DNA of 46,364 nucleotides from a virus (lineage: Duplodnaviria > Caudoviricetes): IMG/VR virus record IMGVR_UViG_3300020045_005878, positions 1 to 46,364 of that record. One strand, given 5' to 3'. A program made the position numbers and the translations under genes. Under the pieces are notes generated by a model that ran no database searches, was not told the DNA's origin, and was given only the letters and a program-made list of their open reading frames with translations. Positions 5,019-38,325 of this stretch are shown piece by piece; the stretch's first letter is position 1, and each line of letters opens with the position of its first letter.

Positions 5019-5355
5019 CAGCGCGTTCGTTAAGAATAATTTTTATATAGTCTTTATAATTACAATACGGAACTTTTAATAGTTCTTCTAAATGGGAAGT
5101 TTCTAAGTCAACTAATTTCTTATAAGTCAACGGCGATTTACCGTCTTTTCCTCGTGTTCCCCAAAGTAGATACTTATGGATTGGAAGATTACCAAACTCG
5201 CAAAGATATTTAATAGCTTCATCATCTTCTGTATTCCAAGCTATTCCACAATTCTCAATTAGTTGTCCTAGTCTCATATCTTCTTTATCTGGTTGTTTCC
5301 ATATAATTGCAAGTATTTCTAATACCACATCTATTCTTTCTATTGGACGACTCAT
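4999..5355 (-). CDS. Hypothetical protein (118 aa) with WGTRGKDGK motif
   Basis: Track ORF 5011-5355 extended through TGA to TAA at 4999. Confidence 0.75.
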
Positions 5356-5377
5356 AAATTATTTTATTAGTTATATA

Positions 5378-5462
5378 TGGTGCGAAACCTCGGACTCGAA
5401 CCGAGAAAGCGTAAGCAAAGGATTTACAGTCCTCCGTAGATTGCCATATCTACAAGTCGCGC
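5378..5462 (-). tRNA. tRNA-Tyr (GTA)
   Basis: Reverse complement folds as a cloverleaf: loop CTGTAAA, long variable arm, T-loop TTCGAGT, encoded CCA end. Confidence 0.88.
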
Positions 5463-5465
5463 ATA

Positions 5466-5540
5466 TGGAGCAGAATGCGTGGATTTGAACCCGCGAACCC
5501 AACGTTGAAGGTTGGTGTGTTACCACTACACTAATTCTGC
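5466..5540 (-). tRNA. tRNA-Gly (TCA), decodes the reassigned UGA codon
   Basis: GCAGAAT/ATTCTGC acceptor stem with G1-C72, C2-G71 and U73 (Gly identity elements); anticodon stem CCAAC/GTTGG with loop CT-TCA-AC; short variable loop; CCA end. Confidence 0.9.
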
Positions 5541-5746
5541 ATATAATCAAGTGGCTCTGTTGTATCAGAGTTGTTCCACTTGTGTATGCTGGTGGATTTT
5601 AGGAGATAAGTTTTCTATCTAAGACCATTTCAGGTATCCATTCGATATGTGAGTGTTTTTTATAAAGGCATACAAGCACCATTTACACATACCATAGCTT
5701 TCCACGAATACAATCGCTTCGTTTAGCAAATATCTTTTAATTTTAT

Positions 5747-5822
5747 TGGCAGGTAACTTGAGAGTCGAACTCAAACTTTATCGCTTTGGAGACGATTGCA
5801 CTACCAATTATGCTAATTACCT
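5747..5822 (-). tRNA. tRNA-Trp (CCA)
   Basis: AGGTAAT/GTTACCT acceptor, G73, loop CTCCAAA, T-loop TTCGACT, CCA end. Confidence 0.9.
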
Positions 5823-5823
5823 A

Positions 5824-5897
5824 TGGTTCTAGGTGATGGAGTTGCACCATCTACTACGGATTATGAGCCCGTTATGTTACTGTTACAATAACCTAGT
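5824..5897 (-). tRNA. tRNA-Met (CAT), probably initiator type
   Basis: Loop CTCATAA, anticodon stem ACGGG/TCCGT, 1:72 mismatch, atypical T-loop TGCAACT, CCA end. Confidence 0.75.
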
Positions 5898-5899
5898 AT

Positions 5900-6000
5900 A
5901 TATGGAAGCTACCCATCCTTTGAGTGAGCTTTACTCTGGAGTGTATGCCAGAAACCAATTATATGAAGGTTCGATTTCTCGGTGAACCTACAATCCATAT
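5900..6000 (-). ncRNA. Candidate cloverleaf-shaped (tRNA-like) structured RNA heading the tRNA operon
   Basis: Closing stem ATATGGA/TCCATAT enclosing three hairpins (AGGTTC/GAACCT, TCTGG/CCAGA, AAGCT/AGCTT); begins just after the promoter at 6008-6034. Confidence 0.35.
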
Positions 6001-6007
6001 AACTTCT

Positions 6008-6034
6008 ATTATATAGAAATATATTAAATGTCAA
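6008..6034 (-). promoter_or_regulatory. Promoter TTGACA-N15-TATAAT driving the tRNA cluster
   Basis: Perfect hexamers at 6034-6029 and 6013-6008. Confidence 0.75.
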
Positions 6035-6038
6035 ATTA

Positions 6039-6263
6039 TTATTTAACTTTCTTCATATTCTTTTTCTTTCCCGCTTTTGCAAGTTGCCCCATCTTCTTCT
6101 TACCATATTTCTTAATACCAATAGAAGCGGCAACTGCGGCTGGGTTAGATGCTCCACCTGCTTTCGCCATTTCCTCAACCGCCTTGAATCTGCTTCCTTC
6201 TCCAAGTGGTTTCTTCTTTGCCTTAGCGTAATCCGCTTTAGCCTTTTTCATTGTTACTGCCAT
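6039..6263 (-). CDS. Small highly basic Lys/Ala-rich protein (74 aa)
   Basis: Track ORF, contains no TGA; has its own promoter upstream. Confidence 0.75.
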   Translation of the reverse strand: MAVTMKKAKADYAKAKKKPLGEGSRFKAVEEMAKAGGASNPAAVAASIGIKKYGKKKMGQLAKAGKKKNMKKVK

Positions 6264-6298
6264 AAAATATAATTGTTAATAAATAAAGTAACAATTAT

Positions 6299-6325
6299 AT
6301 TATACTATTTTAAATTAAAAGTCAA
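6299..6325 (-). promoter_or_regulatory. Promoter TTGACT-N15-TATAAT
   Basis: Hexamers at 6325-6320 and 6304-6299, upstream of the basic protein. Confidence 0.65.
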
Positions 6326-6422
6326 TAGACTATTATATTATTTTTTAAATAAATAATAATATAATTTAGAATCTACTGGAATATCATAAATATTAACTTC
6401 CTCTCAAAATAGATTAAGTATT

Positions 6423-6752
6423 TTAAACGGTCTCTCAAGTTTTTTTACTTTTCACATATAAGCTCATAATTATAGCATAATTTGCAAGGTCTACTAGAGT
6501 ATCCTCAATAGCCTCATCCTTAACCTTTGCCTCATTATCAATAAGAGAAGTGATACGACTCAACTTATCGCACATACGAACTAGAAACCCTTGATTAACA
6601 GAAGTTACGCCAAGTTGTTCTACTAGCTCAAAGTTCTTAAATGGATTATCTTCTTTATCGCCTCCACAATAGTCGTGATTTTTGCGCTTCATTGTTGCCA
6701 ACATATAACCAAGTGTAGCTTCAAATTCTTTTGCAAACTCTTCTTTTTTCAT
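6423..6752 (-). CDS. DUF1599 / nucleotide-modification-associated domain 1 protein (109 aa)
   Basis: KNHDY...NF...RMCDKLSR...EDTLVDLANYAII motifs; extended through TGA to TAA 6423. Confidence 0.8.
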
Positions 6753-8212: not shown

Positions 8213-8728
8213 CTAAAATTTCCAAATAAATCATCAGGCAGTTGGTCTTTCTCATCTTAAACAATTGCTTATATTTGGTCGTTGTATTAATAGCGCTTCT
8301 GCTGCACTTCTAAGTGATTCCCATTCTTTTATAAATATTCAATCCTTAGAAAATTGTGAAACTTTCTTTGTTATAATTACTTTCCTTCATTTTAAAATAC
8401 AATCTTGTGTATTGTCTTTACAAGTTCATAGAAAGAAATTATCTAATGTATTATTTAATGGATTATCATCTTTGTGACAAACAAATGTCCACCTATCTTT
8501 TAGGTCTAATCACATAAACGATGAAGCCATTAATCTAGATACAAGAAATTGTTTATTATTTCAATCTTTCCATAACTCAACAGATGGATATCAATTTCTT
8601 AGTGTAGATATTTTTAACTTACTTTTTCAAGTTCATCTATAATTGACAATAATAATATTTCAAATGTTACTTGATTTATATATTCACTCATATCAAGGAA
8701 TATCTTTATATATTTCTATCATAGTCAT
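8213..8728 (-). CDS. NUMOD4-HNH-NUMOD1 homing endonuclease (~170 aa)
   Basis: YKDIPGYEGIYKSSNIG (NUMOD4), VCHKDDNPLNNTLDN (HNH), C-terminal IKEWESLRSAA...TAGGFIWKF. Confidence 0.88.
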
Positions 8729-10200: not shown

Positions 10201-10932
10201 TTAAAACGGAATGCCATCTTCAATACCAAACGGCTCATCGTCTACTTCTTTCTTAGTTTCTTTAACGAACTCTTTTCCTTCTTGGAACATATACTTCGTA
10301 TCCATTCCTTCTCCACTTACCTTCATCTTCACAAACTTTCCTTCTAGCACATTTTTCAAAGTATCTTCCCAGTCATACGCTTCCACCATAGCCTCATTTC
10401 CTGCCTTGTCTTTGCCTTCTACAAGTGGTATTAGTTCTCCTTTATCCTCGTCCATCACGCCCCTCAACATAGACTTAATTTTTCAAGCCTTCACTCAAGT
10501 TACATTTACCACATCTCCACTCTCAGTTACATCTACGTTATTCTTCTTATCATAGTAGCGAGTAACGTTAAGTTCTTTTTCAAACTCAATCTCTATATCA
10601 AATACCTTTCCCCAAGTCTTCCAGAAGTCCTTATCCAACTTATCTTTAACCTTCATATAGGTAGGAGTATTTCCGTCCCAGATAACCTCTCGAAGCTCTC
10701 TGCCGTTAGCAACCTCATACTCTTTTGTAAACTCTTTGATTCGGTCTGAGCCTCCTCGTAGAACTTGGTCTTCTGCCTTTCCGAACCACTTGAATGTGCG
10801 GAATAGATATTTGTCATTACCTAGGTCAATACATCCCGTTCTGTAATCGTTGTATACCTTGTTAATCTTGAACGTCTTGTTGTGAAATTGTCTTAGAAAT
10901 TTCTCAGATGTCTTAACTACTCCTATTGTCAT
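10201..10932 (-). CDS. Putative single-stranded DNA-binding protein (243 aa)
   Basis: Joins track ORFs 10495-10932 and 10201-10470; acidic C-terminal tail EDGIPF; recombination gene context. Confidence 0.6.
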
Positions 10933-10961
10933 AAATTATAATAATTATTTAATAAATATAT

Positions 10962-11216
10962 CTAATTCAAGAACATAAATTTTGAATATCACACGAGTAT
11001 TCAATCGTTATCCTCTACTACTCCAAAGTCTCAATTTCTTTTCTTTCTTAGGAACGTTTCCATTGACACATAAACCTTATCGTCTATCATATAAGCTATG
11101 TCTTTGTCTTCTGTGGTGAAGATTGCGGGTGATACTCAACCAAGTTCTGTTAGTTGTCGTTTCTTTTGGAAGAAAGAGTCTCTGCTCAATCAATCTAATG
11201 TGGCTGTCGTTGTCAT
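10962..11216 (-). CDS. Hypothetical protein (84 aa)
   Basis: Code-25 ORF directly downstream of promoter 11250-11276. Confidence 0.65.
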
Positions 11217-11249
11217 ATGAATTGTGTTATTAATTACTCTATATATTCT

Positions 11250-11276
11250 ATTATACACATAAAGATTAAATGTCAA
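11250..11276 (-). promoter_or_regulatory. Promoter TTGACA-N15-TATAAT
   Basis: Perfect hexamers at 11276-11271 and 11255-11250. Confidence 0.75.
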
Positions 11277-12030
11277 AAGATAATTTAATTTCCTCTATAA
11301 TAGATTCTTTAATTATCTTTCTCCCTTCCTCTATCATATCATACTTCACATCGAATATAGGTTCAACTAGATATTCATCTCGTATTTTCTTTGCGTATTC
11401 GATATTTAAATTTGCTATCTCGTCTATTCATAAGCTAGGAATATCACCAACCTTTAATCAAATAAGTTGTATTCTCTCATCTCAATTATGGAGGAAATTT
11501 CAAATATCTCATTTAACGAATCTATCCATAAGGATTCTTAGCCTTACGATATGATGAAGTTGCTTTGGGTCATATCAGAACTTTTCTATCTTATGGACTA
11601 TAGAAGGATACGGATGGCGCAAAGCCTCGTACTTCTCCAACATCATTCAATAGCAAGCCTTTAAATACAATTTCCCCATAGTCTCTTGTAGTGGAATGAA
11701 GAACTTTCTTAGTTTATCTGAGCCTATAAAATATGGAGTATTAAGAATCTCTATGAAGTTTATATTGCACTTAACCGCACTATCAATATATGCGCGAATA
11801 TCCTTAACATCTATTAACCCTCAACCAAACTCATAAGTAGAAGAAAATGGTTTTGAGTTCTCAATTATATCGTCTAACTTAGGAAGTATAATTGCCTTAT
11901 AATCAACATCCGATTCCGCCGTATCAAGATTATAGTTTTGGCTACCATATACTGCAACATAGAATATGTTATGTCATTTGTCTTCCAAAAACTTCTTAAC
12001 TCATTCAAGATTAAATTTATCTTCTTCCAT
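11266..12030 (-). CDS. Pol-beta superfamily nucleotidyltransferase (RlaP/YcgL-like, 254 aa)
   Basis: YVAVYGSQNYNLDTAESDVDYKAIILP signature; C-terminal GYDPKQLHHIVRL. Confidence 0.85.
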
Positions 12031-12048
12031 ATTAAAATAAATTATAAA

Positions 12049-12918
12049 TTAAAAATCTCAATAAGCAACTTGAAAGCAAGTAAGTCCCATCTCACGCCAA
12101 GCCTTAACAACTCGGTCTCTATCGTCAAATACCCCTCTCACATTACACTTAGGAAGAATATACTTCTCGGCGATTTCCCGTTTAACTATTGAGTCACAAC
12201 GCGAGTCGTCCGATTTCCTCATAAATAATTGGAAGTATTGAGTTACGTTATCCGATATCCATTCAATAGTCTCATCTCGACAATCGTCTTTTCTTCAACT
12301 AACAATAATAATCTCACGTCAAGTATTCTCAATAATTTTAAGCAAATCCCTCACATCCTTATCAACAATATCTGTTCATACCTTTGAATAATCGTAAGGA
12401 CTCCGTCCGCTCATATGAGCTAATGTTCAATCAATATCGAATATATAAGCTTCTGGAAGACTCTTGTCTTGTACTAGCTTGGGAGAGTTAATATTTTTAT
12501 TTACGCAATATTTATTGTATGTGTCAAGTATTACTTTAGCTCCAACTCGCGCGCTTCATTCTCGTTTTGAATCCCTCTCAATACATTCCCATAGTGGAGT
12601 ATCAAACTCTTTTACTTCCACTTCATATCAATATTGAGATGCTAGATTCTTATAAAAGGCGATGTGTGGATTATCTGTCCCTAGGTGGGTGTTGTCTACG
12701 ATGATATATGGGTACATCTCCATCATAAGACTCTCAACATTTCATCGTTCATATGCAACTACTTCTTTCTCATTGCTCTTTGAGTATACTCCTTTATGAA
12801 GTTCTTGACGAATTGTATCTTTATTTAATACTATAGACATACTATCTTTAGCCTCATTATTCGCCCACGAGCTTTTACCAGATGCTTGCAAACCTTTTAA
12901 TAGAACTAATTTTTTCAT
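12049..12918 (-). CDS. pseT: Polynucleotide 5'-kinase/3'-phosphatase (T4 PseT-like, 289 aa)
   Basis: P-loop GLQASGKS, HAD motif FDIDGTLA, VSGR, FDDRDRVV..WR..GL.CFQVAYGDF. Confidence 0.92.
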
Positions 12919-12930
12919 AAGTTTTTTGTA

Positions 12931-13158
12931 TTATTTAATATATATTCTTGGATATTTAATACTCTTTACATATCATTTATCCTTACATTTCTTCTCAATA
13001 CGGCGAAGGCAAGCAGTTAAAGCTAATCATTGTTCTACTACAACTTCTCAATCTATTTCTTTTTGAACCGAGAAATATATTTTATTTGTACTACTATCAT
13101 AATTACTTGATACAATTATAGGACAAAGAGTCTCGATAAGGTCTCGTCATTGGTTCAT
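12931..13158 (-). CDS. Hypothetical protein (75 aa)
   Basis: Code-25 ORF between the ligase and PNKP genes. Confidence 0.65.
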
Positions 13159-13164
13159 AAGTTT

Positions 13165-14052
13165 TTAGTTAAATGCTACTGATTCTGGATTTCAATCAAT
13201 TATATCTAATGCGATTCTTGCAATCTTTTGAGTAGATAGTTTAGATAGTCTATTGAAGTTTATAATCCCCATCTTAGAAATAGAACCAACTTCTTCTTGA
13301 AGAAAATCGTAATACGTCATTCATATAATCTTAGATATATCCTTACGTTCAATATCTTTATCCTCGTTCTGCTCTATCTTATTCATAACCTTGCGGATAC
13401 GCTCGATATTCACATACTTACTAACCAACTTCATCTCAGCATCATCACTTGCTGCATTACCGAATACGATTGCATTATCTTCCTTGAACTCATCTCAAAC
13501 TATTTTCCCATAGCATTCATTACCAAACTTATTTACGAATTTCTCGTTCTTTACTACTACTCATTCTCCAATAGGTCATAGAGTAGATTTACCAACAAAC
13601 TCCATAAGATTATCTATTGTTGGATTTGTAATAACGGCGAACGTATGAGGAGTGCGAATTTTATAGTCTTTTGCAACACTTCTAACATATTCTTGACTCA
13701 TTCTATTTCATTCCTCGTTCTCTATATCAAAAATATAGAAATGGGAATAATTTTCAGCGTTGTATGATGTAATCGTATGTGGGACAAGCCACTCTCCATA
13801 TAGTCTATGAAGTGGATATAGTCTTAGATATTCGCAAATTCCCTTATGCCCCTTACAGTATTCTACCGCACCTCGGAAACTTCCGAGAGTTACATCTTGT
13901 GTGCGACTTCAAACGTGGATTTCACTATCCTCCATCCAAATACTCAAATTCGCACCATCTACTTTCTCTTGAATAGTACAAACTCATTGTAGTAATCCTT
14001 CTGTCTCATCCTTTCCCATACGATAGATTTTACCGTATCACTTGAAGCCCAT
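13165..14052 (-). CDS. RNA ligase (Rnl2-like ATP-dependent nucleotidyltransferase, 295 aa)
   Basis: Motif I QEKVDGAN, GSR, LYGEW, FYIFDI, GEGVVVKN motifs. Confidence 0.88.
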
Positions 14053-14056
14053 AAGT

Positions 14057-14215
14057 TTAAATAAATAACGGAATAAAAATAATACTCAACAAAAGAATAA
14101 TAGATACAACGGCGAGAGTAATCGTGTTAATTGATGTACTACGATTACTTTTAACTATTTGTCAAGCTCTCAACTTCCGCTCATCTACTTTCCAAATATC
14201 TTTTTTAATTGTCAT
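14057..14215 (-). CDS. Small membrane protein (52 aa)
   Basis: Code-25 ORF with hydrophobic C-terminal helix. Confidence 0.55.
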
Positions 14216-14226
14216 AAATTAAGTGA

Positions 14227-14361
14227 TTAAATATTATCTAAAATTGTATTTGCAATACTATCCACCATTTCTTTATAATCATAAGCTCAATCTAGATTAC
14301 AATAGTTGTCTACTATTCCTAGTATTTCACTTGTTAGTGATTCTGCTTGTTCTTTTGTCAT
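14227..14361 (-). CDS. Hypothetical protein (44 aa)
   Basis: Code-25 ORF in tight operon packing. Confidence 0.55.
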
Positions 14362-14365
14362 AAAA

Positions 14366-14560
14366 CTAATGAGTTAAGAAGTAACCAATAAGATAACCAA
14401 ATGTAAAAAAGAATGTTACTTGTATTGTTCTTACTAAATAACCTGCATATTTAAGTTCTTTATAAACCTCTGCCCATTCATTATAATTACTTTTATTTAT
14501 TTCTCAACTGTCCACTTTCTTTAAAATCTCATCAACTGTGAGATTCTTTTTTATAGTCAT
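14366..14560 (-). CDS. Small membrane protein (64 aa)
   Basis: Code-25 ORF with C-terminal hydrophobic segment. Confidence 0.55.
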
Positions 14561-14596
14561 ATATTCTATTATTAATAATTAGAAATTCTTTTTATA

Positions 14597-15904
14597 CTAA
14601 AAGTTCCAAAGGCTTAATTCTTGTTCTGTGGCGGGAGTAAATAATCAACCCCTATTAAAGTCTATCTTAAATACTTGCTCTACTCTTGCGGTTCATATTC
14701 TATTCTTACTAATCAGCATAGTAACAACGGCGATATTCTTTATCTTATCGTCCATAAATAATCCGCTCTTCTTCCTCCATTCATAGAAAGGAGAGTAATA
14801 GAATAGATGAATGCCGACGTCTGTGTTGTTGCGCAAGAAGCTACTTCAATAGAACCCACCATACATCCTAATGCTTTCCTCATCCGCGCCTTTCTCTAGA
14901 TTAGATAGGTCAATAAGGCTAATTTTTGTCTTCTTAACAAAGTTCTGGATGCGGCGAGCGTATTGTGTATACATATCTTGCTCGGTAACTTTATGGATGT
15001 TGATTAGACCAATATAATCTATAAATACAACCTCTGGCTTTATCTCTAGTATTCTGGCGAATATCTTACTTAGCTCATACTCCTCATCAATAAGATAAAA
15101 ATCCTTCTTGTGCTTATCTAACCAACCAAAGTCTACACTATGAGACCCATCTTCTACCGAATGAGAGTTGACTCTCTCCTTATTAGCCATTATGTTTGTT
15201 ATAGTAAAGCTCTTCTCATTCTCTAGTGTGAAGAATGCTACCTTTACTCCTTGGTCTAGAAGATTCGTTATCATATTATAAGCTAATTGAGACTTACCTA
15301 AGTTACTAACTGCGCCAATTCGATACGTTCGTCATTTCTGGATTCATTTAGTGTAATGGTCTAGGAACTCAAGATTATCTCAGAAGCTATGACCAAATAA
15401 CTTCTTACCTTGACGACTCTCAATATATCCCATTGTATCTTCAATAATAGAATCTAGACTATACTCAGATGAGTCTAGGTTATTCATACTCAATAATCTA
15501 TCTGCATAATTTATAATCTCACCACTATCAATCTCTCAATCCTTTACGCTCTTCATTAAATTATCTGCTATCTTTGCTACTTCTGAGCGGCGACTTGCCT
15601 TCTTCATCTTATTAGCATAATAGCCAATATTTTGAGGAGAATAACCACCTTCAACAATATCTATAATAGCGGAATTTCCTCATACAATTTCCAATTTACC
15701 CATATCATCTAATTTATCCCTAACAGTGACAATGTCAATAGGAGAGTCAGAAGCTACGAGTAATGAGATTGCATTAAATATATTTTTATTTGATTCTAGA
15801 AAGAAGTTTTCTTCTGTAATTCAATGGAGCTCGGTTGTTTCTCAATGGAGGAGACTTCCTAAGTAAGCCTTTTCCATATCTTCTTTTATAATTTCTGCAC
15901 TCAT
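14597..15904 (-). CDS. dnaB: Replicative DnaB-like helicase (435 aa)
   Basis: N-terminal DnaB domain (PIDIVTV), Walker A GAVSNLGKS, FFTLE, VVFIDYIGLI, ISKNR; includes track ORF 14846-15274. Confidence 0.92.
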
Positions 15905-15913
15905 AAGTTTTAA

Positions 15914-16018
15914 TTATTGGTTCTCCATATAAGTATCTTCGTCTATTTCTTTAAGTGTCCAGCGAGATGGTTCATATTCTTCGTCCCACTCATCTTCATT
16001 CCAAAGACCGCATTCCAT
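15914..16018 (-). CDS. Small acidic hypothetical protein (34 aa)
   Basis: Short ORF MECGLWNEDEWDEE... Confidence 0.4.
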   Translation of the reverse strand: MECGLWNEDEWDEEYEPSRWTLKEIDEDTYMENQ

Positions 16019-16032
16019 AGTTATGAAGCTTA

Positions 16033-16146
16033 TTAAGAAATAATAGAAATGATTACATTTTCAACATCATCTTGATAGTCGTGAAACTCTATTCCGAACT
16101 CTTCCATTTTCTTAAAGAAGTATTCAACTTTTTCTGGCTTATTCAT
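16033..16146 (-). CDS. Small hypothetical protein (37 aa)
   Basis: First ORF after promoter 16177-16203. Confidence 0.45.
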   Translation of the reverse strand: MNKPEKVEYFFKKMEEFGIEFHDYQDDVENVIISIIS

Positions 16147-16176
16147 AATAAGAATGTTAAAGAACTAATAAACTCA

Positions 16177-16203
16177 ATTATATAAAATAATAGTAAATGT
16201 CAA
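16177..16203 (-). promoter_or_regulatory. Promoter TTGACA-N15-TATAAT
   Basis: Perfect hexamers at 16203-16198 and 16182-16177. Confidence 0.75.
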
Positions 16204-16233
16204 AACTTTTTTTAATTTTCATCAAAAGATAAT

Positions 16234-17058
16234 TTATAATTGTTTAAAGAACTCTAATGCGGCGAGTTTTCGCTCTTCGTCCTCTTTCGCATTTGTTCGC
16301 TTAAAGAGACCCTTTGTTTTCATTTGATTAGAAAGTATAGGGAACTTGTAATAAAAGCTCATAGCGGACGTAATTTTGCCTACCCAGAACGCATCCTCAT
16401 TCGCATATTCCATAATATTACTAACCAGTAGCACTCAATCTCACCCGCTCTCTTCAACTAGCTTCTTCCATTCGTTATTTCTCAATAGGTTACTAGCCCA
16501 CATTCTTTCCTTTATACTTGAATAAGAGTAATCGGACTTATATAGAGATTCTTTAATAGTAGATAGAACAACATCGACCGATTTACTAGAAATCTTTGGT
16601 CTCTTTTTTATTGTTTCTATTTTTACTACTAATGTATTTTCTTTTTCTTCTATTGTATTTATCTTTTCTTCTATTGTATTTGTTTCCCGTTTACCAGTTG
16701 CTGGTTCAACCCACTCTCTGGGTAATGGGGGTTCTGGATAGGATTGCTCTACAAAGCCAATGTCAAATTTAACTCGAATGAAGTGCGAGAGGATAGTTCA
16801 ATATTCCGCGCGTCTTATGATTGGCTCTATAAACCCAGTATCAATAAGAACTTTCTTAGCGTTTGCGAATCTATCTTTACCCCAACCCATAGCCTTTATC
16901 ATAAAACTATCCGTTGAATATGTATTCGCCGTTGTTTGTATACGACTTTGAATAAGATAACGGAAGTATAGCAACATACAATCTCCGCCGTTCTTGTAAG
17001 ATATAAACTTATAGATAGTAAAGGATGTTGTTGACAAAATCTCATTAACATCTACCAT
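16234..17058 (-). CDS. Replication initiator (lambda O-like organisation, 274 aa)
   Basis: Joins track ORFs 16798-17058 and 16234-16434; N-terminal winged-HTH-like segment (MGWGKDRFANAKKVLIDTGFI), central iteron repeats, upstream of dnaB. Confidence 0.75.
16621..16681 (-). repeat. Iteron-like direct repeats, candidate replication origin
   Basis: TTTTCTTCTATTGTATTT at 16643-16660 and 16664-16681 plus a degenerate copy at 16621-16639. Confidence 0.6.
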
Positions 17059-17061
17059 ATA

Positions 17062-17247
17062 TTACTTTTTAGTTATACAAATAGAACTACATCCATCACA
17101 CTTCGCATATCCAAATGCTTCGAGGCTTTCTTTAACTTTGGAGCATACTCAAGACCGTACTTCTTCTACAGGTAATGAATATGGTTTCTTGTGGTGCTTA
17201 ATAATTTCTGTTCCTTCGTGGTGTTCTTTTAGGGTAATGTGTGACAT
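17062..17247 (-). CDS. Hypothetical Cys-containing protein (61 aa)
   Basis: Code-25 ORF with C...CDGCSSIC. Confidence 0.55.
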
Positions 17248-17258
17248 AATAGGGTTAA

Positions 17259-17396
17259 TTAGAAAAGTAGATTAAGTTTTTTACAAATATATTCTGGTAG
17301 TCGTATCTGAATAGTATTATCCCAAGGTGCTTTTGTTCCGATTGATAGATAATGCTTACCATCATATTCAATCCAGTGTAGAAGTTTAGTGTTCAT
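17259..17396 (-). CDS. Hypothetical protein (45 aa)
   Basis: Start moved to 17396 because the upstream gene occupies 17401-17450. Confidence 0.55.
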   Translation of the reverse strand: MNTKLLHWIEYDGKHYLSIGTKAPWDNTIQIRLPEYICKKLNLLF

Positions 17397-17400
17397 ATTT

Positions 17401-17802
17401 TTAAATAAGATTACGGATATAAGATTTACATTCTTCACTTTGTTCTTCATATGTTGGTTTTGATAATTCCCAATATTTTCTTATGTTTGTTTCTTCATAG
17501 TCTATTGCATTGGAATATCATTCCTCTGATGAGTCATATAAATGTCTTATATAAAATAATACATCACTTAATATTATTTTATGACCTATTGCATCAATAT
17601 CCCATCAATGAATTTCATAGTCAGCTTCTGATATTTTAATTATAGAATTGTCTGATACTCTCAAATGTTTATCTGTTTCCAAAAACATATATATCTCTTT
17701 ATAGTCATCAGAATTTGGATGGAAAAGAAGTCAAAATGATTTGTCTTTTCTTGCTATTTTCTGATATACGAGCGTATCTTCCGATACTTCTAGTGGGTTC
17801 AT
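17401..17802 (-). CDS. Hypothetical protein, SFG/IGH/SK paralog 1 (133 aa)
   Basis: KDKSFG...AIGHKIIL...WELSKPTYEEQ. Confidence 0.7.
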
Positions 17803-17804
17803 AA

Positions 17805-18242
17805 TTACTTTTGATTAACGCTTCCAGATAAAGATTTCATAAGATTGTATAGTGGTTCTAGGTCTTGGTCTCGGAGTGGTTTTGATAGGTCAAGTTTTGC
17901 TTCCACATCAGTAGCACTACGGGTACCAATAACTCAATCTGCTCATATAAAATACATTTGTTTTTCTTTATCAAACCACCTCATCACTTCCCGTAGGTCA
18001 TAAGGGTGACCGAGGATAACTTCCTTCGGAACTTCTACTCAACTTCAAAGAGAAACATCATATCTGCTTCAATCTATATCAATAGAATAGTATGAGTCTA
18101 TTCACCAAGGACAATTTATTCAAATAAACTTTCATACTCATCTGTAGTTCTTCACCTCACATCAAAAACTCACTTCCTTATTTATCAACCCGGCAGGTTC
18201 AAGGAATTCGTCACGAATGCGGGTGTAAAATGTATTTTCCAT
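17805..18242 (-). CDS. Hypothetical protein, SFG/IGH/SK paralog 2 (145 aa)
   Basis: KEVSFGC...ILGHPYDL...DLSKPLRDQ. Confidence 0.7.
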
Positions 18243-18246
18243 AGGA

Positions 18247-18423
18247 TTATTTATTATTAGAAATAAGCTCAATTATTTGCTTCAAAACTCCATCTTCTAC
18301 TAATGAATCAATGCTAAATGCGACTCACACTGAATCTTGGAGATATACTGTTCATTGTGGCATTTCAAGTATATCTCATTTTTTTAAATCTCTAAAATCT
18401 CTTATACATTCGTACTGTTTCAT
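18247..18423 (-). CDS. Hypothetical protein (58 aa)
   Basis: Code-25 ORF MKQYECIRDFRDLKKGDIL. Confidence 0.6.
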
Positions 18424-18794
18424 TGTTCTCTTATTAAAGAAATAATTTGCTTCAATGTAGATTCTTCTTGGTCGAGTAGTTCTTTCGAGGAATCATATGG
18501 GATTCATTCATCATACATAGATAATGGATAAAATTGTATTTTATCTTCCCATTGACCCCATACAATTCATTTCTCATTCAAAAATCTATGAAAATTTATG
18601 AGAGTTGGAGGATGACCGATAATAATATCTGGTTTTTGGATATTATGTACTTGTAAATCATCAGCCAATATTTTATATCATCATTCAATTTTATGTATTA
18701 TAGTGGCATATCTGCACCATTTCTCTATCTTGCATCAAAACGATAATTCCTTCTTACCCAATAGCTTCGTTAATTCGAGTTGTAAATTTTCCAT
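18402..18794 (-). CDS. Hypothetical protein, SFG/IGH/SK paralog 3 (130 aa)
   Basis: KELSFGC...IIGHPPTL...YDSSKELLDQ. Confidence 0.7.
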
Positions 18795-18827
18795 AGTCTT
18801 ATTAGAAAAAGGATAAAAGTAGATTTC

Positions 18828-18932
18828 TTAATCTTCTTGTGGCAATGGTTCTGATTCTCTTTGATATGCATCGAATCCTGATTGAGCGTCAAGACTGTCT
18901 TCCGCATCTCGTATGTATGAAAGTGTACACAT
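18828..18932 (-). CDS. Small hypothetical protein (34 aa)
   Basis: Short ORF in operon gap. Confidence 0.35.
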   Translation of the reverse strand: MCTLSYIRDAEDSLDAQSGFDAYQRESEPLPQED

Positions 18933-18936
18933 AGTC

Positions 18937-19284
18937 CTATTTGTTAGTAGATAATGGTGGTTCTTGGAGGGGTTGCCAATATTGGAACATTGATACTGTT
19001 CTATCTTTGGAAATCCATTGACTGTGTATTTTGTCCCATCGAACTATTTGTTGGACATTTCCTTGTAAATTCCATATTGCAAGAAATTCTTTGGAATTTT
19101 GAGGAGGATATTTTTCATTTACACTTATCCATCCTGTTTGTTCTTGTGGTAGAGATTCTAGGCGAGTGATGAGGTCTTCTAGTGCTTCGATATATCCAAT
19201 ATCATATTTGGAGTTTATATCAATAGTATCTACTGCGTGGTCTCGCATCTTCTTTGCTTCTTCTATAGCTTGTTTGTTACTCAT
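18937..19284 (-). CDS. DUF551-domain protein (115 aa)
   Basis: GWISVNEKYP...YWQPLQEPP signature. Confidence 0.8.
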   Translation of the reverse strand: MSNKQAIEEAKKMRDHAVDTIDINSKYDIGYIEALEDLITRLESLPQEQTGWISVNEKYPPQNSKEFLAIWNLQGNVQQIVRWDKIHSQWISKDRTVSMFQYWQPLQEPPLSTNK

Positions 19285-19579
19285 TGGTAGTAAGGTTATC
19301 GCAAATAGTATTTCCTTCTTGGCTCTTCTTTTGGAAGCGTTCTATTACCATTCGTATAATTCAGGCTGCATCATAAAATTTACTTGGGTAATATCAGTGT
19401 AGCATATCCTCCAATACCTCCACTACCATAGCCTCTGCATTTGCTTTGGCTTGTGAGAGTTGTTGGATTTCGAAAGTTCGGACTTGTGGGAGAATTTCAT
19501 CATAGAAAGAAGATTTTTCTCAAAAGTAATTGCTTTCTTCCAACATCTTTGTAATAGGAAGATTTTGTTCTGTTTTCAT
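19277..19579 (-). CDS. Hypothetical protein (100 aa)
   Basis: Code-25 ORF overlapping the DUF551 start. Confidence 0.65.
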
Positions 19580-19590
19580 ATAATGGATTT

Positions 19591-19785
19591 TTAAATATTA
19601 TTTTTTTCTTCTTCTTTTTCTTCTTCAATAGGAATAATAATTGCAAAAATTATAATATGGAAAAGAATTAAAGCCAATAGTCACCACACCTCTCAATTAG
19701 ATATCCAATAGAAGAATTTAACGATTCAAAATAAGTATGAAACTAAAAGTGTTAAAGATATTCATCCTCATATTCTATCTCTCAT
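19591..19785 (-). CDS. Small two-helix membrane protein (64 aa)
   Basis: Two hydrophobic segments and a charged C-tail; directly downstream of the glucosaminidase-like gene. Confidence 0.55.
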
Positions 19786-19789
19786 ATAT

Positions 19790-20305
19790 TTAATAAGTTA
19801 AGAAATTATAAGCATAAGTTGCGTGGCGCAATCAGTTTGGACAACCCTTTGAGCTTCCAGAACTTTCCTCGCTAGTACAATATCAAGTCTTACTTGTTTT
19901 TCATTTTGGTGGATAATAATGAGATGGAAGTGGACTATTGTACCAATAAATATTATAACTCTTAATCCATCGGTCGAAATTAGCATATACACTTGCATAT
20001 TTCTTTCCTTCATTAATTCCCCATACATTATTTCCTTTTGCATTCTGCCCCATTTGACTCTCAGATTTAGCAATCATACAAGCGGTAACTACACAACGAC
20101 TAGGATTAATAGCCGTTTCTTTGCAACGATTAATAACATAAGAAGCAAGGTTCTTTTCCATACCTAGTTTCTGAACTTTGTTGTATAATTCATAAGTCGA
20201 TTTAGTCCAATTCGTATCTGCAAATACTTTCATATTCGCACATTCTGCCCAAACTCCTACCAGTACCGCAATAGTTACCAATACGTTCACCATAAATTTA
20301 CCCAT
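19790..20305 (-). CDS. Lysozyme-fold glucosaminidase-like cell-wall hydrolase with N-terminal signal/TM segment (171 aa)
   Basis: MIAKSESQMG...NNVWGI motif and downstream YC; track ORF 19901-20305 extended through TGA. Confidence 0.65.
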
Positions 20306-20328
20306 ATATAGATATTAATATTAAAGTA

Positions 20329-20345
20329 GGCGGAATCTCACCGCC
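20329..20345 (-). terminator. Small GC hairpin, possible terminator or processing site
   Basis: GGCGG/CCGCC stem in an AT-rich intergenic gap. Confidence 0.4.
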
Positions 20346-20353
20346 ATATATTA

Positions 20354-21130
20354 TTATTTCAAAAGAAGAACCTTAGTCTCTTCTTCCTTAATTTTCTCTA
20401 CGGTTAATTGTAGAGTTTCAAGATTCTTTCTAATTCATTCAAGATAAATAATAGGTTGTGTTCTAGTAGAAGAAGCAATAAGCGCAGTTGAATTTGTCGA
20501 TTGTGTAAGTTTATCTGAGATTCGAGAGATTGTACCGCTTATCGCACCTATAACTTTAATAGAACTATCTACGGCGCGTTGACCAGAAACCTCCAACATA
20601 GCAGAACTCAATAAAGTTTGGAATATAGGACGATTAGTCGCCATAGTCTTGATAAGCTTTCGAGTAGAAGATAGTCGTAAATCAATACGCGATTTTGTCA
20701 ATATAAGATTCTCCTTCATTACCTGAATAGTCCTATAGTCAATCTCGTCATCTTCGCCATCTATCTTGTCTACGTTAGACTCTAGATAAGTATCTATCTT
20801 TGCAATCTCAGATTCTAGTCCTTCGTTATAACTACTAAACATAGCCTCACTACTTACTAGCCCGTCATAAGTCCCATCATATCGTGAGAATATTGCACCA
20901 ATCTTTCCTTCAAAGCTTTTATATTCAAAACCTTCATCCTTTCCTACTATCTTTTTAATAAAAGACAATATGGCAGAATCTTTATTACCTCCTATCCCGC
21001 TATATATATCCTCAAAGTCTTTGTTAATGCCCATCACATCCTCCTCAACAAATTGAGAGGAGTCGTTATGGATAATGTCGCCCGTCTCATTAATAAGATT
21101 ATTAAGAGAATCTAGATTTAATTTTTCCAT
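20354..21130 (-). CDS. TelA-like (toxic anion resistance family) coiled-coil protein (258 aa)
   Basis: Helical pattern YKSFEGKIGAIF...KLIKTMATNRPIFQTLL...QPIIYLEGL resembling TelA; extended through TGA. Confidence 0.55.
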
Positions 21131-21336
21131 ATGTTAGAGATTTTAGAGAATAGATTTTCTTTTGGAGCTCGTGTTATTAGTCAGTTCTTAACTAGGAAGT
21201 TCTCGGCATCGTCCTTAAAGTAGTATCCAATTCCTCCAATAATAACCGTTGGAACTACACCTAGAACAATAGAAGATAGGATAGTTCCTCCTACTACTAC
21301 CTTCTCGGTTGTTGACAAATTTAGTTTTGCTTTCAT
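21118..21336 (-). CDS. Small membrane protein (72 aa)
   Basis: Gly-rich hydrophobic hairpin; overlaps the TelA-like start. Confidence 0.6.
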
Positions 21337-21338
21337 AA

Positions 21339-21905
21339 TTATTTAGTAAGTTTATGTAATAGATTGCGAATTTGTGATTTAATCTTTGGTGATTTAAATT
21401 CTTTTACTATCAACTCAAAGTTTTCCGAGTATATTTTAGCAACCTCACTTAGAAATAAATCTCTTGATTCTTCTAGCTCACCTAGATTATCGAAAGTCCT
21501 TTCTATGGTAGATTTTTGCGAACCTAGAAAATTTTTGAATGATTTTATTTTATCTTCTATAAGTTTATTCTTCCTATCAATTTCTTTTTTTGCAAAGTAA
21601 GCATTAATAGAAACCTTATTTGTTTTTATGAAACTTTCAGAATCGTCAGAAGTAAATCAGTATTTATATCATAATTTTTGAATATAATGAATATCTCAAT
21701 TACTTTCAATATCATATCAAAGAATCATTTTTTTATTTAATGAAAATCCTGACAACTGTGTTTTAATAGCAATGTCATTATCAGATTGAAATATTTTTGC
21801 CTCTCATTTATAAATCTCACATTTCCATACTCCGTGAGCGCTCATATTATAGCGTTCTCAATTTTTATAAATCGAATAATTCCCTTTTGTTTCTGGAAGT
21901 TTCAT
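21339..21905 (-). CDS. Hypothetical protein (188 aa)
   Basis: Continuous code-25 ORF. Confidence 0.7.
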
Positions 21906-21906
21906 A

Positions 21907-22410
21907 TTATTTTACATTAGTAGATAAAATTTTCTTGTTTACTATATTATTAATAACGTCCCTAATCTCCTCCATCTTATTTTCTGTGGACGAAATTTTC
22001 CCATTAAGTATGCCAACCTCTCTATTAAGAGTTGTAACTTGATTAGTCTTTAATGCAACTCCACTCGCAAATGAAACCCTATTTGCTTCCAGTGAACGGA
22101 GTGTGTCGGTTGCTTGAATAAGTTGTTGGTCTAACTTTGGTACTGGAGTACGGAATGATAGTCCAATAATAAATACAAGAACAACTACAGCGACAATTCC
22201 CGCAATCTTTGCAATCTTTTGAAAGTTAAAATTAAACTCATAAGAACTTTCTTCCATCTCTTCTTCAACTTCCATATCGCTTGGAACTTCATTCCGCATC
22301 TTCTGCTTAATAGAGTTATTAAATAGTCGTCCTACATTATCGGCAAGCTCTTGTGAGCGGTCGTCCATAGGAATTTGTCTTACTAGAATATCTTTCTTTG
22401 TTGTACTCAT
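21907..22410 (-). CDS. Single-pass membrane protein with C-terminal coiled coil (167 aa)
   Basis: Track ORF; TM IAGIVAVVVLVFIIGL followed by heptads. Confidence 0.75.
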   Translation of the reverse strand: MSTTKKDILVRQIPMDDRSQELADNVGRLFNNSIKQKMRNEVPSDMEVEEEMEESSYEFNFNFQKIAKIAGIVAVVVLVFIIGLSFRTPVPKLDQQLIQATDTLRSLEANRVSFASGVALKTNQVTTLNREVGILNGKISSTENKMEEIRDVINNIVNKKILSTNVK

Positions 22411-22511
22411 AAACTTTAATTAGTTATTATTAAATAGATTTAGATATAACTATACAAATTATTACAAGTATAGATATATAAATAATTACAAACTTCATAA
22501 ACTCAATTAGA

Positions 22512-22808
22512 TTAATTATTATAGAATGCAGAATTATAATCCTCCTGAATAAGGTTTCCCCTCAGATAATTAAGATATAGAATCTCTTTATAGGACTTTC
22601 CTCGTGCTTTCGATAATTTCTCAATCTCCTCCTCTCTCTTTTCGATATCTTTTATATATTTTTTTGGTGGCGAATTTGTATATCTTCCACAAAAATAACT
22701 TACTTCACTTGTTTTTATTCATAGTCTATATGCAATGTTTTCAATACTTTCGCCCATAGAATATAACTCTCTAATCTCGTGAGCATTTCAGCTTGTCATT
22801 CCAGTCAT
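22512..22808 (-). CDS. Putative HTH DNA-binding protein (98 aa)
   Basis: IRELYSMGESIENIAYRLGIKTSEVSY helix-turn-helix pattern. Confidence 0.65.
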
Positions 22809-22815
22809 TATATTT

Positions 22816-23715: not shown

Positions 23716-23730
23716 AGATATATTTAGTTA

Positions 23731-24912: not shown

Positions 24913-24921
24913 AGAATTATT

Positions 24922-25137
24922 TTATAAATTAAAAGTAGTATAGGAATATTTGTCGCGTAAAACAACCCAAAATTGGGCTCATTCAAAAGTATCGTGGAAA
25001 TTCAAATTGTTTATCATATAATATACAGTGGGATATCTATTATTGATAGAGATATATTGTCTTTTAAATTCTTTTATGTATGATTGTTTATCTTCTTCTG
25101 ATAGAAGAGATAATAATTGCTCTATTGAAAATTCCAT
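24922..25137 (-). CDS. Hypothetical early protein (71 aa)
   Basis: Code-25 ORF with TFEGAQFW motif. Confidence 0.6.
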
Positions 25138-25141
25138 AAAA

Positions 25142-25390
25142 TTAAAATTTACTATATAAAAATTTTAACATTTCTCTATGAGAATATGAGTCTTCATTAC
25201 AGAAAAGTTTTTCTATTAAGGCTTTAGGTCAACTGTATCCATTATTTATTCCGATAATTTCTATGTTATCAAAATAAATATTCTTAAACTCATTTCTATG
25301 ACTAGTAGACCTTTTGTCTTTCATAATAATCAAGTACAAATAGTCAGCAGATTTTATTTTTGGCTCTCTTATTATTTCGGTTGTACTCAT
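25142..25390 (-). CDS. Hypothetical early protein (82 aa)
   Basis: Code-25 ORF overlapping track ORF 25229-25417. Confidence 0.6.
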
Positions 25391-25417
25391 AAAAATAAAA
25401 TAAATAAATAAACTCAA

Positions 25418-25558: not shown

Positions 25559-25606
25559 AATCTTTAATTTAACGATAAAATAATCTAAACTAAAATTTAA
25601 TTATTA

Positions 25607-25864: not shown

Positions 25865-25883
25865 AAGTATAAAAAATTAATAA

Positions 25884-33809: not shown

Positions 33810-34880
33810 ATGACTGTTAACTTTAATACTGGAAGCGCGAATTACGCAGAAGGTAAATCGCTGCTTTCCCCACTCATTCAGGAAATCGTTGACCAAACTA
33901 TCGAACAGGTAGGACTTGACGAGGAACTTGAAAAATATGGGTTCGTACGAGAAACTCCTCTTACTCCAGATGGTATTATTACCTCTATGGTAGGTCCTGA
34001 ACTTCTTGCGCAGATTGATGAAGATGAGGAAGCTCCTGTTATCACAATCCTTCAAGGGTTTGAAAAAGGATACACACTCAAAACATTTGCAGGACAACAC
34101 AAAATCACTAAGGTATTTAAGAAATGGATTGAACAGGGAGCACAAATCTCTGGAGCTGATTCTTCTGTTAAAGCAGAACTTAATAAGCTTAAAGATGCCG
34201 TAGTTCGTCTTACTCAAGGACGTATCCTTACTATCAATGCACTCGTTGCAAAGACTTATGGTAATGGGTTCTCTGTAAGTACTGCATACGGACCAGGAAG
34301 TGCATCTCCAGATGGAGCGGCTCTCTTCTCTGCATCTCACATCATCAAGAAAACAGGAGGAACGTATTCAAACCTTGCGTCTGGTGCTCTCACTGCAATT
34401 ACTCTTGAGGCTGCAATCGTTTCACACAAACTTACACTCCGTTCAGGTAATGGATTCCGAATCAAGACTCCTGAGGTATTCGACCTTCTCGTTCCACGAG
34501 CTCTCGAAATTACTGCTCGAAAGATTCTCAACTCTACTTCTGACCAAGCTGGTCTATATGCAGGTACAGGTAGCAATGCTAACCTCCTTAATACATTTAT
34601 GTTCCAAGGGTCAAAGGTTAAGCTCGTTGTTCTTGATATGCTAGGACAGCCAGATAAAGATGGAAGTGTAATTGGTGGAGCTAATGCAGATACAATGTGG
34701 TTTCTTCTTAACCGAGAACTCGCACTTATGGTTAAAGCATTCCGTCTATTCACACTTTGGGATAACGAAGTTACAATGTACGAAAACGAGGCAACCTCCT
34801 CGACATTTGTTAAACTTGATTCCCACTTTATGACAGAACATTTTAATCCAGAATGTATTGTTGGTTATGCAGGTGCGTAG
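33810..34880 (+). CDS. Major capsid protein (HK97 fold, Mu gpT-like, 356 aa)
   Basis: DGAALFSASH, LLVPRALE..ARKILNS, WFL motifs; intact in both codes; followed by a terminator. Confidence 0.92.
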   Translation: MTVNFNTGSANYAEGKSLLSPLIQEIVDQTIEQVGLDEELEKYGFVRETPLTPDGIITSMVGPELLAQIDEDEEAPVITILQGFEKGYTLKTFAGQHKITKVFKKWIEQGAQISGADSSVKAELNKLKDAVVRLTQGRILTINALVAKTYGNGFSVSTAYGPGSASPDGAALFSASHIIKKTGGTYSNLASGALTAITLEAAIVSHKLTLRSGNGFRIKTPEVFDLLVPRALEITARKILNSTSDQAGLYAGTGSNANLLNTFMFQGSKVKLVVLDMLGQPDKDGSVIGGANADTMWFLLNRELALMVKAFRLFTLWDNEVTMYENEATSSTFVKLDSHFMTEHFNPECIVGYAGA

Positions 34881-37440: not shown

Positions 37441-38325
37441 ATGGCAAATGTAAAAGCATTAGTTATAGCGTGATGAGGTTGAGGTTGATATCACCAATGA
37501 TGATGAGGTGGGGCAGGTTGATATCAATATATATCTTCATTATCCATATTACCACAAGCATACTCAGTAACAATCGGTAATTGATGAGCTTGAGATGCAA
37601 CAGAAGATTGAACGTGAACTAGTTGACAAAATTCTGTTTTTGCATCTATAACATCTATTTGATGATGAGGATGATGAAGTAGAAAACCTTCTCCTAATTA
37701 TCATACAGTTGGAGCTAATTGATGATGTGGCTGAGGTAATAGTGCCTGAGAAGATTCTCCTTGAACTACAGTATGAATAGGAAGTCAATGATATAATTGA
37801 TGAACTTGAAGTGGTATTTGAACTGGTACGTATCATCATTGATGATGATGATGAGGATGAGCTTGAGCATTATGACAAAGTTGTACTTGAAGCTGAGCAT
37901 CTTGAGATAATTGAGGAAATTGATGAGATGGATTATCAAATAGTATTTCTTGAAGTTCTGTATATTATGCAGGTGGTTGATGAGGAGCTACATATTTCAC
38001 GCCAACAAATACAGTATGAGCATGATGACTATGAGGATGATGAGCTTGAGGCTCTCTAGCATCTGCACCAATAAATGGTACTGCTAATACTTGAGGCGGT
38101 TGAGGAGGTTCTTCTTATAATTGAAGTGCTTGAGGAAATTGAGGAAGCGGAATAATTATTATTTCTTATGCTTCAAATTGAAGTGACGGTATTTCTACTT
38201 TATCTACTGGTGGTACAATAACTACTTCTTGAACACAAACAATACATACATTTACAACTAGTTGAACATTTACGGCAGTTGCAAGCACGGTTACAAACAA
38301 TTCAAATTTCTTTTTATTTTTCTAA
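37441..38325 (+). CDS. Glycine-rich virion protein (294 aa)
   Basis: ALVIAGGGGGG...GGGGAGG...GGSGIIIISY; most Gly encoded by TGA. Confidence 0.85.

Follow-up and report, generated by a model that had tools for sequence, protein, structure and literature searches.

Why does a phage that reads TGA as glycine carry a tRNA of its own for this codon? The question is raised by a tRNA gene with anticodon UCA in a tailed phage whose genome was analysed as one stretch of 46,364 nucleotides, here called the window, and the matching virus record of 46,364 bp is complete, bounded by direct terminal repeats.

The tRNA gene, its bulge and its neighbourhood

ARAGORN predicts a tRNA with anticodon tca on the minus strand, which ends exactly at 5466 and 5540, and labels it "SeC", a label that derives from the anticodon alone. 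The best Rfam match is RF00005, with 47.8 bits (gathering score 29) and an E value of 2.8e-7, and in its alignment the T-stem carries a single inserted A on the 3' strand. In the numbered anatomy all 21 of the 21 stem pairs are Watson-Crick, namely the acceptor stem (G1-C72, C2-G71, A3-U70, G4-C69, A5-U68, A6-U67 and U7-A66), the D-stem (4/4), the anticodon stem (5/5) and the T-stem (5/5). The conserved tertiary contacts are all kept (U8-A14, G15-C48, G18-U55, G19-C56 and U54-A58), the anticodon loop reads C32 U33 U34 C35 A36 A37 C38, the variable loop has 4 nt, as in a type I cloverleaf, and the 3' end consists of U73 followed by an encoded CCA. The fold has a z-score of −2.4, with equally good folds in 6 of 200 shuffles. 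The sequence-only reading had described a complete tRNA with anticodon TCA, a short variable loop, G1-C72, C2-G71 and U73, and a bulged A in the T-stem, and this description is confirmed; it leaves out that pair 3-70 is A-U. The locus is a real tRNA(UCA) gene and, judged by its sequence, likely a functional tRNA-Gly.

The bulged A sets the window copy apart, as it is present in only 1 of 11 aligned tRNA(UCA) genes from TGA-recoded contigs. The idea that it is a family trait was rejected, since the other 10 aligned genes lack it, and it is likely a private insertion that is tolerated. The distance from T54 to position 72 that results from the bulge, 19, is found in 9 of the 773 tRNAs from fetched loci; the value for the unbulged tRNA of phage G004 (see below) is 18, a reading of 19 there being a register offset from the missing CCA. 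L276, a standard-code phage whose ligase and PNKP genes are related, has a tRNA-Gly(UCC) with an extra A in the T-stem 3' strand, one step beyond the position of the bulge in the window.

The gene is the third of a cluster of four, in the order Met(CAU)-Trp(CCA)-Gly(UCA)-Tyr(GUA), and all four end in an encoded CCA (Table 1). By our reading the CAU tRNA is initiator-like, from its A1-A72 mismatch, and the Trp(CCA) tRNA would compete with the UCA tRNA at UGG. The sigma-70-like motif upstream of the cluster has nine matches genome-wide, compared with 0 in 100 shuffles, and its spacers are 15 nt long except for one of 16 nt; a standard promoter scan misses the copy at 6008-6034 because it allows only spacers of 16-18 nt. 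The spacer between the Trp and Gly tRNAs (5541-5746, 206 nt) and the leader before the Met tRNA (5900-6007) both form hairpins, and the leader ends in CCA directly before the first tRNA. These folds are only modest (z −2.3 for the spacer and −1.9 for 5900-6010), and Rfam at a relaxed threshold gave no further RNA family above its gathering score within 5300-6450. In addition, the RNA ligase, the polynucleotide kinase-phosphatase (PNKP) and the RlaP-like nucleotidyltransferase encoded upstream of the cluster (11266-14109) likely form an RNA repair module.

Table 1 Features of the window around and beyond the tRNA(UCA) gene
Feature	Position	Strand	Evidence or remark
tRNA-Gly(UCA), 75 nt, encoded CCA; anticodon 5508-5506	5466..5540	-	ARAGORN, Rfam, numbered anatomy
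Extra bulged A, T-stem 3' strand, between 62 and 63	5480..5480	-	Rfam alignment, numbered anatomy
tRNA-Tyr(GUA), encoded CCA	5378..5462	-	3 nt downstream of the UCA tRNA; relatives G406 and G407 also have one
tRNA-Trp(CCA), encoded CCA	5747..5822	-	present too in G406 and G407
CAU-anticodon tRNA, unpaired A1-A72, encoded CCA	5824..5897	-	
Promoter-like TTGACA, 15-nt spacer, TATAAT	6008..6034	-	motif scan; 110 nt upstream of the tRNA cluster
Promoter-like motif copies	6008-6034, 6299-6325, 11250-11276, 16177-16203	-	
Promoter-like motif copies	28256-28282, 28695-28721, 32560-32587, 34939-34965, 43024-43050	+	
Nucleotidyltransferase, weak RlaP-like	11266..12030	-	PF10127 below cut-off; phrog_388
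PNKP	12049..12918	-	TGA at conserved Gly columns
RNA ligase (PF09414)	13165..14109	-	
Major capsid protein	33810..34880	+	TGA at 0/32 Gly codons
Glycine-rich tail-region protein	37441..38325	+	TGA at 62/94 Gly codons

The meaning of TGA and the amino acid carried by the tRNA

Under translation table 11 the genome falls apart, while under table 25 long ORFs fill it. We compared the Pfam scores obtained with code 25, with TGA read as X and with code 4. They are, in this order, 164.3, 146.7 and 140.8 bits for PNKP, 62.6, 51.5 and 47.5 for the RNA ligase, 66.4, 58.3 and 54.5 for DnaB_C, and 46, 31 and 29.5 for the terminase N-domain, and a Gly-rich domain reaches 78.1 bits with code 25 and has no match with either of the others. 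Three weak matches show no advantage of Gly over X (Terminase_3C 20.7 vs 22.9, Terminase_6C 20.4 vs 21.2 and RlaP 17.2 vs 17.8). At conserved TGA sites compared with the fetched loci the majority residue is Gly in 12 of 14 and Trp in none, and TGG sites correspond to Trp in 4 of 4. Among 119 PNKP homologues, Gly stands opposite three TGA sites in 108, 96 and 101 sequences. The Trp residues seen in PNKP homologues, also at GGN columns, presumably represent TGA mis-translated by code 4 in recoded relatives. The protein collection stores this phage family with Trp at TGA, that is under code 4, in P0001-P0008 and in 36 of P0121-P0227. TGA is the commonest Gly codon of the phage (470, followed by GGT 245, GGA 211, GGG 65 and GGC 37 in 66 hand-picked ORFs), and makes up 467 of 1015 Gly codons (46%) in the cleaned set of 62 genes. 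The assignment of CGA and CGG to Trp, as in Absconditabacteria, was rejected, as both codons align to Arg. The reassignment of TGA to Gly that had been proposed for this DNA is therefore borne out by the Pfam scores, the conserved sites and the PNKP columns, and on this sequence evidence TGA means glycine throughout the genome.

The acceptor end of the tRNA speaks less clearly. Among the 773 tRNAs from fetched loci, G1-C72, C2-G71 and U73 occur together in 31/43 Gly, 29/40 Thr, 5/11 Cys and 0/19 Trp tRNAs. These bases had been taken as GlyRS identity elements that confirm the code independently; they are present and typical of Gly, but their sharing with Thr and Cys tRNAs means that they are no independent proof of the code. 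The third acceptor pair of the window copy is A3-U70, as in 8 of the 43 ordinary Gly tRNAs, and not G3-C70, which both syntenic relatives (G406 and G407) have and which is described as the working criterion for tRNA-Gly(UCA) in PMC8629427. By its letter the window copy misses that criterion, although the ordinary Gly tRNAs and the relatives show that the pair does not strictly define the type. Each of 15 genomes examined in or close to the Patescibacteria sample, all of them standard-code, has a match to the dimeric GlyRS. Dimeric GlyRS enzymes probably tolerate A3-U70. Isotype profiles with the anticodon masked give Gly 32.9, Cys 26.6, Ala 26.3 and Trp 23.2 bits; these profiles are right for 412 of 616 tRNAs overall and for 22 of 29 Gly calls in cross-validation, and called just 2 of 6 tRNA(UCA) genes Gly, the window copy and that of the bacterial contig L400. 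The T-stem sequence GCGGG at 49-53, present in the window copy, is found in 15/43 Gly and 52/657 other tRNAs.

Several identities were tried and rejected: tRNA-Sec, given the 4-nt variable loop, the 7+5 pairs and the lack of a long variable arm or an extended acceptor-T helix; the tRNA-Trp(UCA) of code 4, given U73 in place of G73 and no TGA site with a Trp majority; and Arg, with which U20 and U73 are at odds. That the tRNA is charged with some other amino acid, be it Cys (whose tRNAs have U73, C35 and A36 in common with it), Thr (acceptor end in common) or Trp or Sec, is highly improbable. The distribution of the acceptor end among Thr and Cys tRNAs, the second rank of Cys among the isotype profiles, the missing G3-C70 and an A in place of C36 would speak for it. 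Against it, the TGA positions are Gly in homologues, so nearly every gene would otherwise be mistranslated; the acceptor end is absent from all 19 Trp tRNAs, the long variable arm and acceptor stem of the Sec type are missing, Arg fits badly, and the relatives have the full Gly set. The window tRNA is thus likely a glycine acceptor, an assignment in which the codon evidence weighs more than the acceptor bases.

Recurrence of the tRNA in recoded phages

To its capsid protein the phage has 107 homologues, 36 of them with Trp at Gly columns, and a single weak match among named phages (Bacillus phage PK1, 30%). The capsid alignment comprises 25 viral loci, of which 4 are close and TGA-recoded and 21 are distant and standard-code. 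Two of the close loci, G406 (46.3 kb) and G407 (35.4 kb), were thus found independently of any tRNA pattern, and both carry a tRNA(UCA) at the syntenic site, with G1-C72, C2-G71, G3-C70, U73 and CCA and no bulge. It is accompanied in both by Tyr(GUA) and Trp(CCA), and neither genome has a GGN-reading tRNA; G406 has three tRNAs in all (UCA, Tyr and Trp) and G407 ten. Of the other two close loci only fragments are available, 7.6 and 18.5 kb long, and neither stretch gave a tRNA match.

A further seven recoded phage-like contigs with a tRNA(UCA) came from pattern scans (G414, G415, G416, G004, G001:C4, L403 and L410); as these scans force the tRNA 3' end, they are no test of identity. Among 67 pattern matches there were 6 tRNA(UCA) loci, 5 of them on recoded contigs, two being G406 and G407. 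Including the window, the tRNA is found in 10 recoded phage-like contigs. TGA aligns mainly to Gly in G407, G004, G416, G001:C4, L410, G415 and L403, weakly so in G406, and not measurably in G414. In the complete phage G416 the tRNA(UCA) is the only tRNA found. Within the family the bodies of these tRNAs are highly diverged, with 41/81 and 43/78 columns identical to the window copy, and the variants have A3-U70 or G3-C70, C38 or A38, and are bulged or unbulged. A bacterial code-25 contig that is not shown to be the host (L400, with genes that we take to be sigma-factor-, APRT- and ABC-F-like) has a tRNA(UCA) with the anticodon loop of the window copy, G3-C70 and no bulge. Only 50 of 75 columns are identical between the two, so the phage gene is not a recent capture from that bacterium.

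Other searches brought little. The exact 28-nt anticodon-arm gave 0 matches in viral contigs; a first degenerate tRNA pattern returned 18 irrelevant loci, made up of Glu-type tRNAs with C33 and a single Sec-type one; the terminase as a single query gave 26 candidate stretches and no relative; and the PNKP alignment contained no TGA-recoded locus among 80 of 302 loci. A pattern scan of 27 of the 64 parts of the genome collection yielded 120 loci, none on a named Gracilibacteria or Absconditabacteria genome and one on a recoded phage-like contig, G001:C4. This contig (L249-L251) is a 57-kb TGA=Gly phage-like sequence whose tRNA(UCA) has A3-U70 and a Trp-like body by profile; it is probably mis-binned, as the rpoB of its genome bin has no in-frame stop. 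Two bacterial genomes, one of them labelled Patescibacteria (L120 in G002 and L244 in G003), have a chromosomal tRNA(UCA) with G1-C72, C2-G71, U3-A70 and U73, and GlyRS genes without in-frame TGA.

One of the recoded contigs is built differently from the window. G004:C1 (L252, L253) is a 49-kb fragment, to which a second record (L541) is 99.98% identical over 14.2 kb. Its 10300-27300 block of 16 ORFs has 8 TGA and 161 GGN codons, compared with 562 and 99 in the other 27 ORFs (TGA 85%, GroEL motifs included). Four small genes of the block end in a TGA that overlaps the next ATG, the tRNA-Gly(UCA) gene falls within it, and of the 6 promoter-like spacers 4 have a length of 17 nt. Taken together, the near-TGA-free early block, its TGA stops, the tRNA inside it and the 17-nt spacers amount to the code-switch layout described in 10.1101/2022.06.29.495998, but with glycine, and G004 looks, from its sequence, to be a phage that switches a standard-code host to TGA=Gly. 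In the part of the survey in 10.1101/2021.08.26.457843 that is used here, phages with a code unlike that of their host have TAG=Gln and TGA=Trp only. G415:C1 16824, a 21-kb fragment, has its tRNA-Gly(UCA) (L495:6001-6074) between TGA-free upstream genes and a TGA-using terminase and portal. It is possibly a second code switcher, with a contrast similar to that of G004 but shorter.

The code of the host and the function of the tRNA

The window phage does not fit the layout of G004. In-frame TGA is present in 56 of its 62 genes, including all 10 of the first genes of the leftward unit, and in 37 of 40 ORFs of at least 100 aa; no early block free of the recoded codon was found, the longest low-TGA run being three head genes. 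In the early gene 26965-27279, 3 of 4 TGA sites are Gly in a code-11 homologue. TGA accounts for 34% of the Gly codons in the first genes and for 58% in the tail block, but for 26% in the head block. It is wholly avoided by the capsid gene (0/32, p 3e-9), as nearly does the scaffold-like gene (1/12), the neighbours are also low, and the capsid genes of the relatives are near-free of it (3/31 Gly codons in G406 and 2/36 in G407). TGA-avoiding genes (capsid, scaffold-like, decoration-like, acidic-tailed DNA-binding-like and small basic) lie at 32621-34880, 10201-10932, 20354-21130 and 6039-6263, and in a NUMOD4-HNH gene (8213-8728) TGA encodes 14 of 14 glycines. No case of TGA used as a stop was found in the window phage; a supposed relic stop at an ATGA overlap near 9190 was rejected, as the frame reads through to the length of the homologues. 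Profiles for release factors (PF00472) and for the dimeric GlyRS (TIGR00389) had no match in the phage, and a Pfam scan of 38 of its proteins gave no release factor or synthetase gene.

This distribution suggests that the host probably reads UGA as glycine already before infection. Around 90% of genes with an in-frame recoded codon are reported for code-25 phages, a pattern described for phages that share the code of their host (10.1101/2021.08.26.457843, PMC10746230). With TGA in 56 of 62 genes, the early ones included, the window phage resembles such phages, so the tRNA would not be needed to open the code. Promoter spacing lends weak, independent support to a recoded host: spacers are 15-16 nt at 9 of 10 window sites and 3 of 3 sites on code-25 contigs, and 17 nt at 19 of 21 sites of code-11 relatives; the recoded relatives, too, have mostly 15-16 nt. 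The 15-16-nt spacing may reflect the sigma factor of code-25 hosts. CGA and CGG are predicted to be Trp in Absconditabacteria, and CGG to be Trp or Arg in Gracilibacteria (PMC8629427). Since both codons align to Arg in the phage, a host of the Gracilibacteria (BD1-5) type fits better than Absconditabacteria, and we infer such a host from the codons. Patescibacteria were sampled with a pattern (401), with rplB (161 and 80), with an L400 protein (301) and in small follow-ups, and these samples contained no clearly code-25 genome.

We lean towards the view that the tRNA(UCA), likely glycylated by the host, likely tops up the sole UGA decoder of a host that probably already has UGA=Gly. Transcription from the short-spacer promoter (6008-6034) would yield a Met-Trp-Gly-Tyr precursor, a dimeric host GlyRS would charge the tRNA, and the extra decoder would pay late in infection, during production of the TGA-dense tail proteins. 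Only one tRNA decodes UGA; because of this, and because TGA reaches 58% in the tail block but is absent from the capsid gene, UGA decoding can be read as a slow step, which would be eased in two ways, with abundant proteins avoiding the codon and the phage adding a decoder. The lack of GGN-reading tRNAs in G406 and G407, and the UCA tRNA that stands alone in the complete G416, support such a bottleneck. Of the earlier proposal that the phage brings its own decoder, what stands is that the tRNA is there and is kept in relatives; it would be a supplement only, as the early genes already need TGA=Gly and the phage has no release factor or synthetase gene.

Some observations do not favour a supplementary decoder. 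In L400, a contig without a demonstrated link to the phage as its host, 50 of 99 Gly codons are TGA, on a par with the phage, so there would be no codon-bias mismatch to compensate; mycobacteriophages are described as giving no compensation signal (PMC10264068); and two code-25 prophages are described as having no tRNAs (10.1101/2024.03.08.584096), which makes the gene dispensable for the code. It is possible, though rather unlikely, that the tRNA serves in counter-defence instead: the host would cut its own tRNAs, and the phage would supply nuclease-resistant Gly(UCA), Trp and Tyr tRNAs along with an RNA repair kit. The single UGA decoder, needed by 56 of 62 phage genes, would be a natural target, and the genes for RNA ligase, PNKP and the RlaP-like nucleotidyltransferase belong to the transcription unit of the tRNA cluster, G407 having PNKP and nucleotidyltransferase homologues as well. 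All 3 family genomes with tRNAs keep both Tyr and Trp, and the UCA tRNA bodies are very diverged in the family, as expected if escape drives change; a general model of escape from host tRNases is given in PMC10264068. However, the anticodon loop is that of L400 (not shown to be the host), with no escape change visible, and code-11 phages commonly have relatives of PNKP, whether or not they carry tRNAs. Supplementing the decoder and counter-defence are not separable by sequence alone.

In a standard-code host, the tRNA, made at once from its own promoter, would itself have to turn UGA into glycine, which is very unlikely here. A tRNA needs no translation and this one has a promoter-like site, the TGA share climbs from the first genes to the tail block, and G004 shows such a design with the same kind of tRNA. 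But the window has no TGA-free early block, with low-TGA runs of three head genes at most, whereas 11 of 38 ORFs are TGA-free in G004; there is no release factor gene, no TGA stop was found, and the promoter spacing is unlike that of code-11 phages and of G004. Genes with 10-84 TGA codons would hardly be completed in the presence of RF2. We give as little credence to a mobile code switch, in which the tRNA, together with a small protein free of TGA (for example the basic one of 74 aa encoded just upstream), would make UGA Gly in a standard-code host; if true, this would be a host-independent TGA=Gly recoding, missed by surveys of recoded phages. It is also improbable that the gene does little, either as a decaying copy, in which the bulge impairs EF-Tu binding or processing, or by an assembly error. 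The rarity of the bulge among tRNA(UCA) genes and of the distance of 19 among tRNAs would fit a weakened copy, but the 21 stem pairs and the tertiary contacts are intact, and a similar extra A is found in the tRNA-Gly(UCC) of the code-11 phage L276. EF-Tu contacts the T-stem pairs 49-65, 50-64 and 51-63, and these are kept. A supplementary decoder, charged by the host, hence remains the reading that we prefer.

A phage-borne tRNA-Gly(UCA) is already published. RSA-ATP1, a code-25 phage of Absconditicoccaceae, is described as carrying a tRNA-Gly(TCA) among four tRNAs (10.1101/2024.03.08.584096, PMC13059738); in the portion of that work drawn on here, its authors state that no other patescibacterial phage with this tRNA had been reported, and that two related prophages have no tRNAs (10.1101/2024.03.08.584096). 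Like the window phage, RSA-ATP1 is described as a code-25 tailed phage with a small, complete genome (39 kb) that encodes four tRNAs, and its tRNA-Gly(UCA) is proposed to aid translation in a host of the same code, as we propose here. The companion tRNAs are Met, Arg and Leu in RSA-ATP1 and Met, Trp and Tyr in the window, and the host is an Absconditicoccaceae member in the former and more likely of the Gracilibacteria type in the latter, where CGA and CGG are Arg. ORFs containing UGA amount to 60% in RSA-ATP1 and to 56/62 in the window, a comparison made by description and not by sequence. What is new is likely the conservation in a family, the repeated occurrence in 10 contigs and a host that likely belongs to another order.

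The chromosomal code-25 tRNA-Gly(UCA) of Absconditabacteria (SR1) and Gracilibacteria is described as having the same anticodon, type I structure, G1-C72, C2-G71 and U73 (PMC8629427, PMC13695967), whereas the window copy is phage-borne, with A3-U70 in place of G3-C70 and a bulge in the T-stem. The suppressor tRNAs of crAss-like, Lak, Agate and Jade phages are likewise reported as phage tRNAs for a reassigned stop, mostly charged by a host synthetase, but they serve TAG=Gln or TGA=Trp in standard-code hosts, with early genes in the standard code (10.1101/2021.08.26.457843, 10.1101/2022.06.29.495998). The window phage, unlike these, is recoded throughout, and it is the capsid gene, not the early genes, that avoids TGA.

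These findings turn a single published case into a recurring trait, with several kinds of code-25 phage keeping a UGA-reading tRNA-Gly despite having almost no other tRNA. The recurrence singles out UGA decoding as a weak point when code-25 hosts are infected. The diverged natural variants of the family provide material on how GlyRS accepts A36 and on how UGA is discriminated from UGG, and the phages that seem to switch a standard-code host to TGA=Gly bear on how code 25 could spread.
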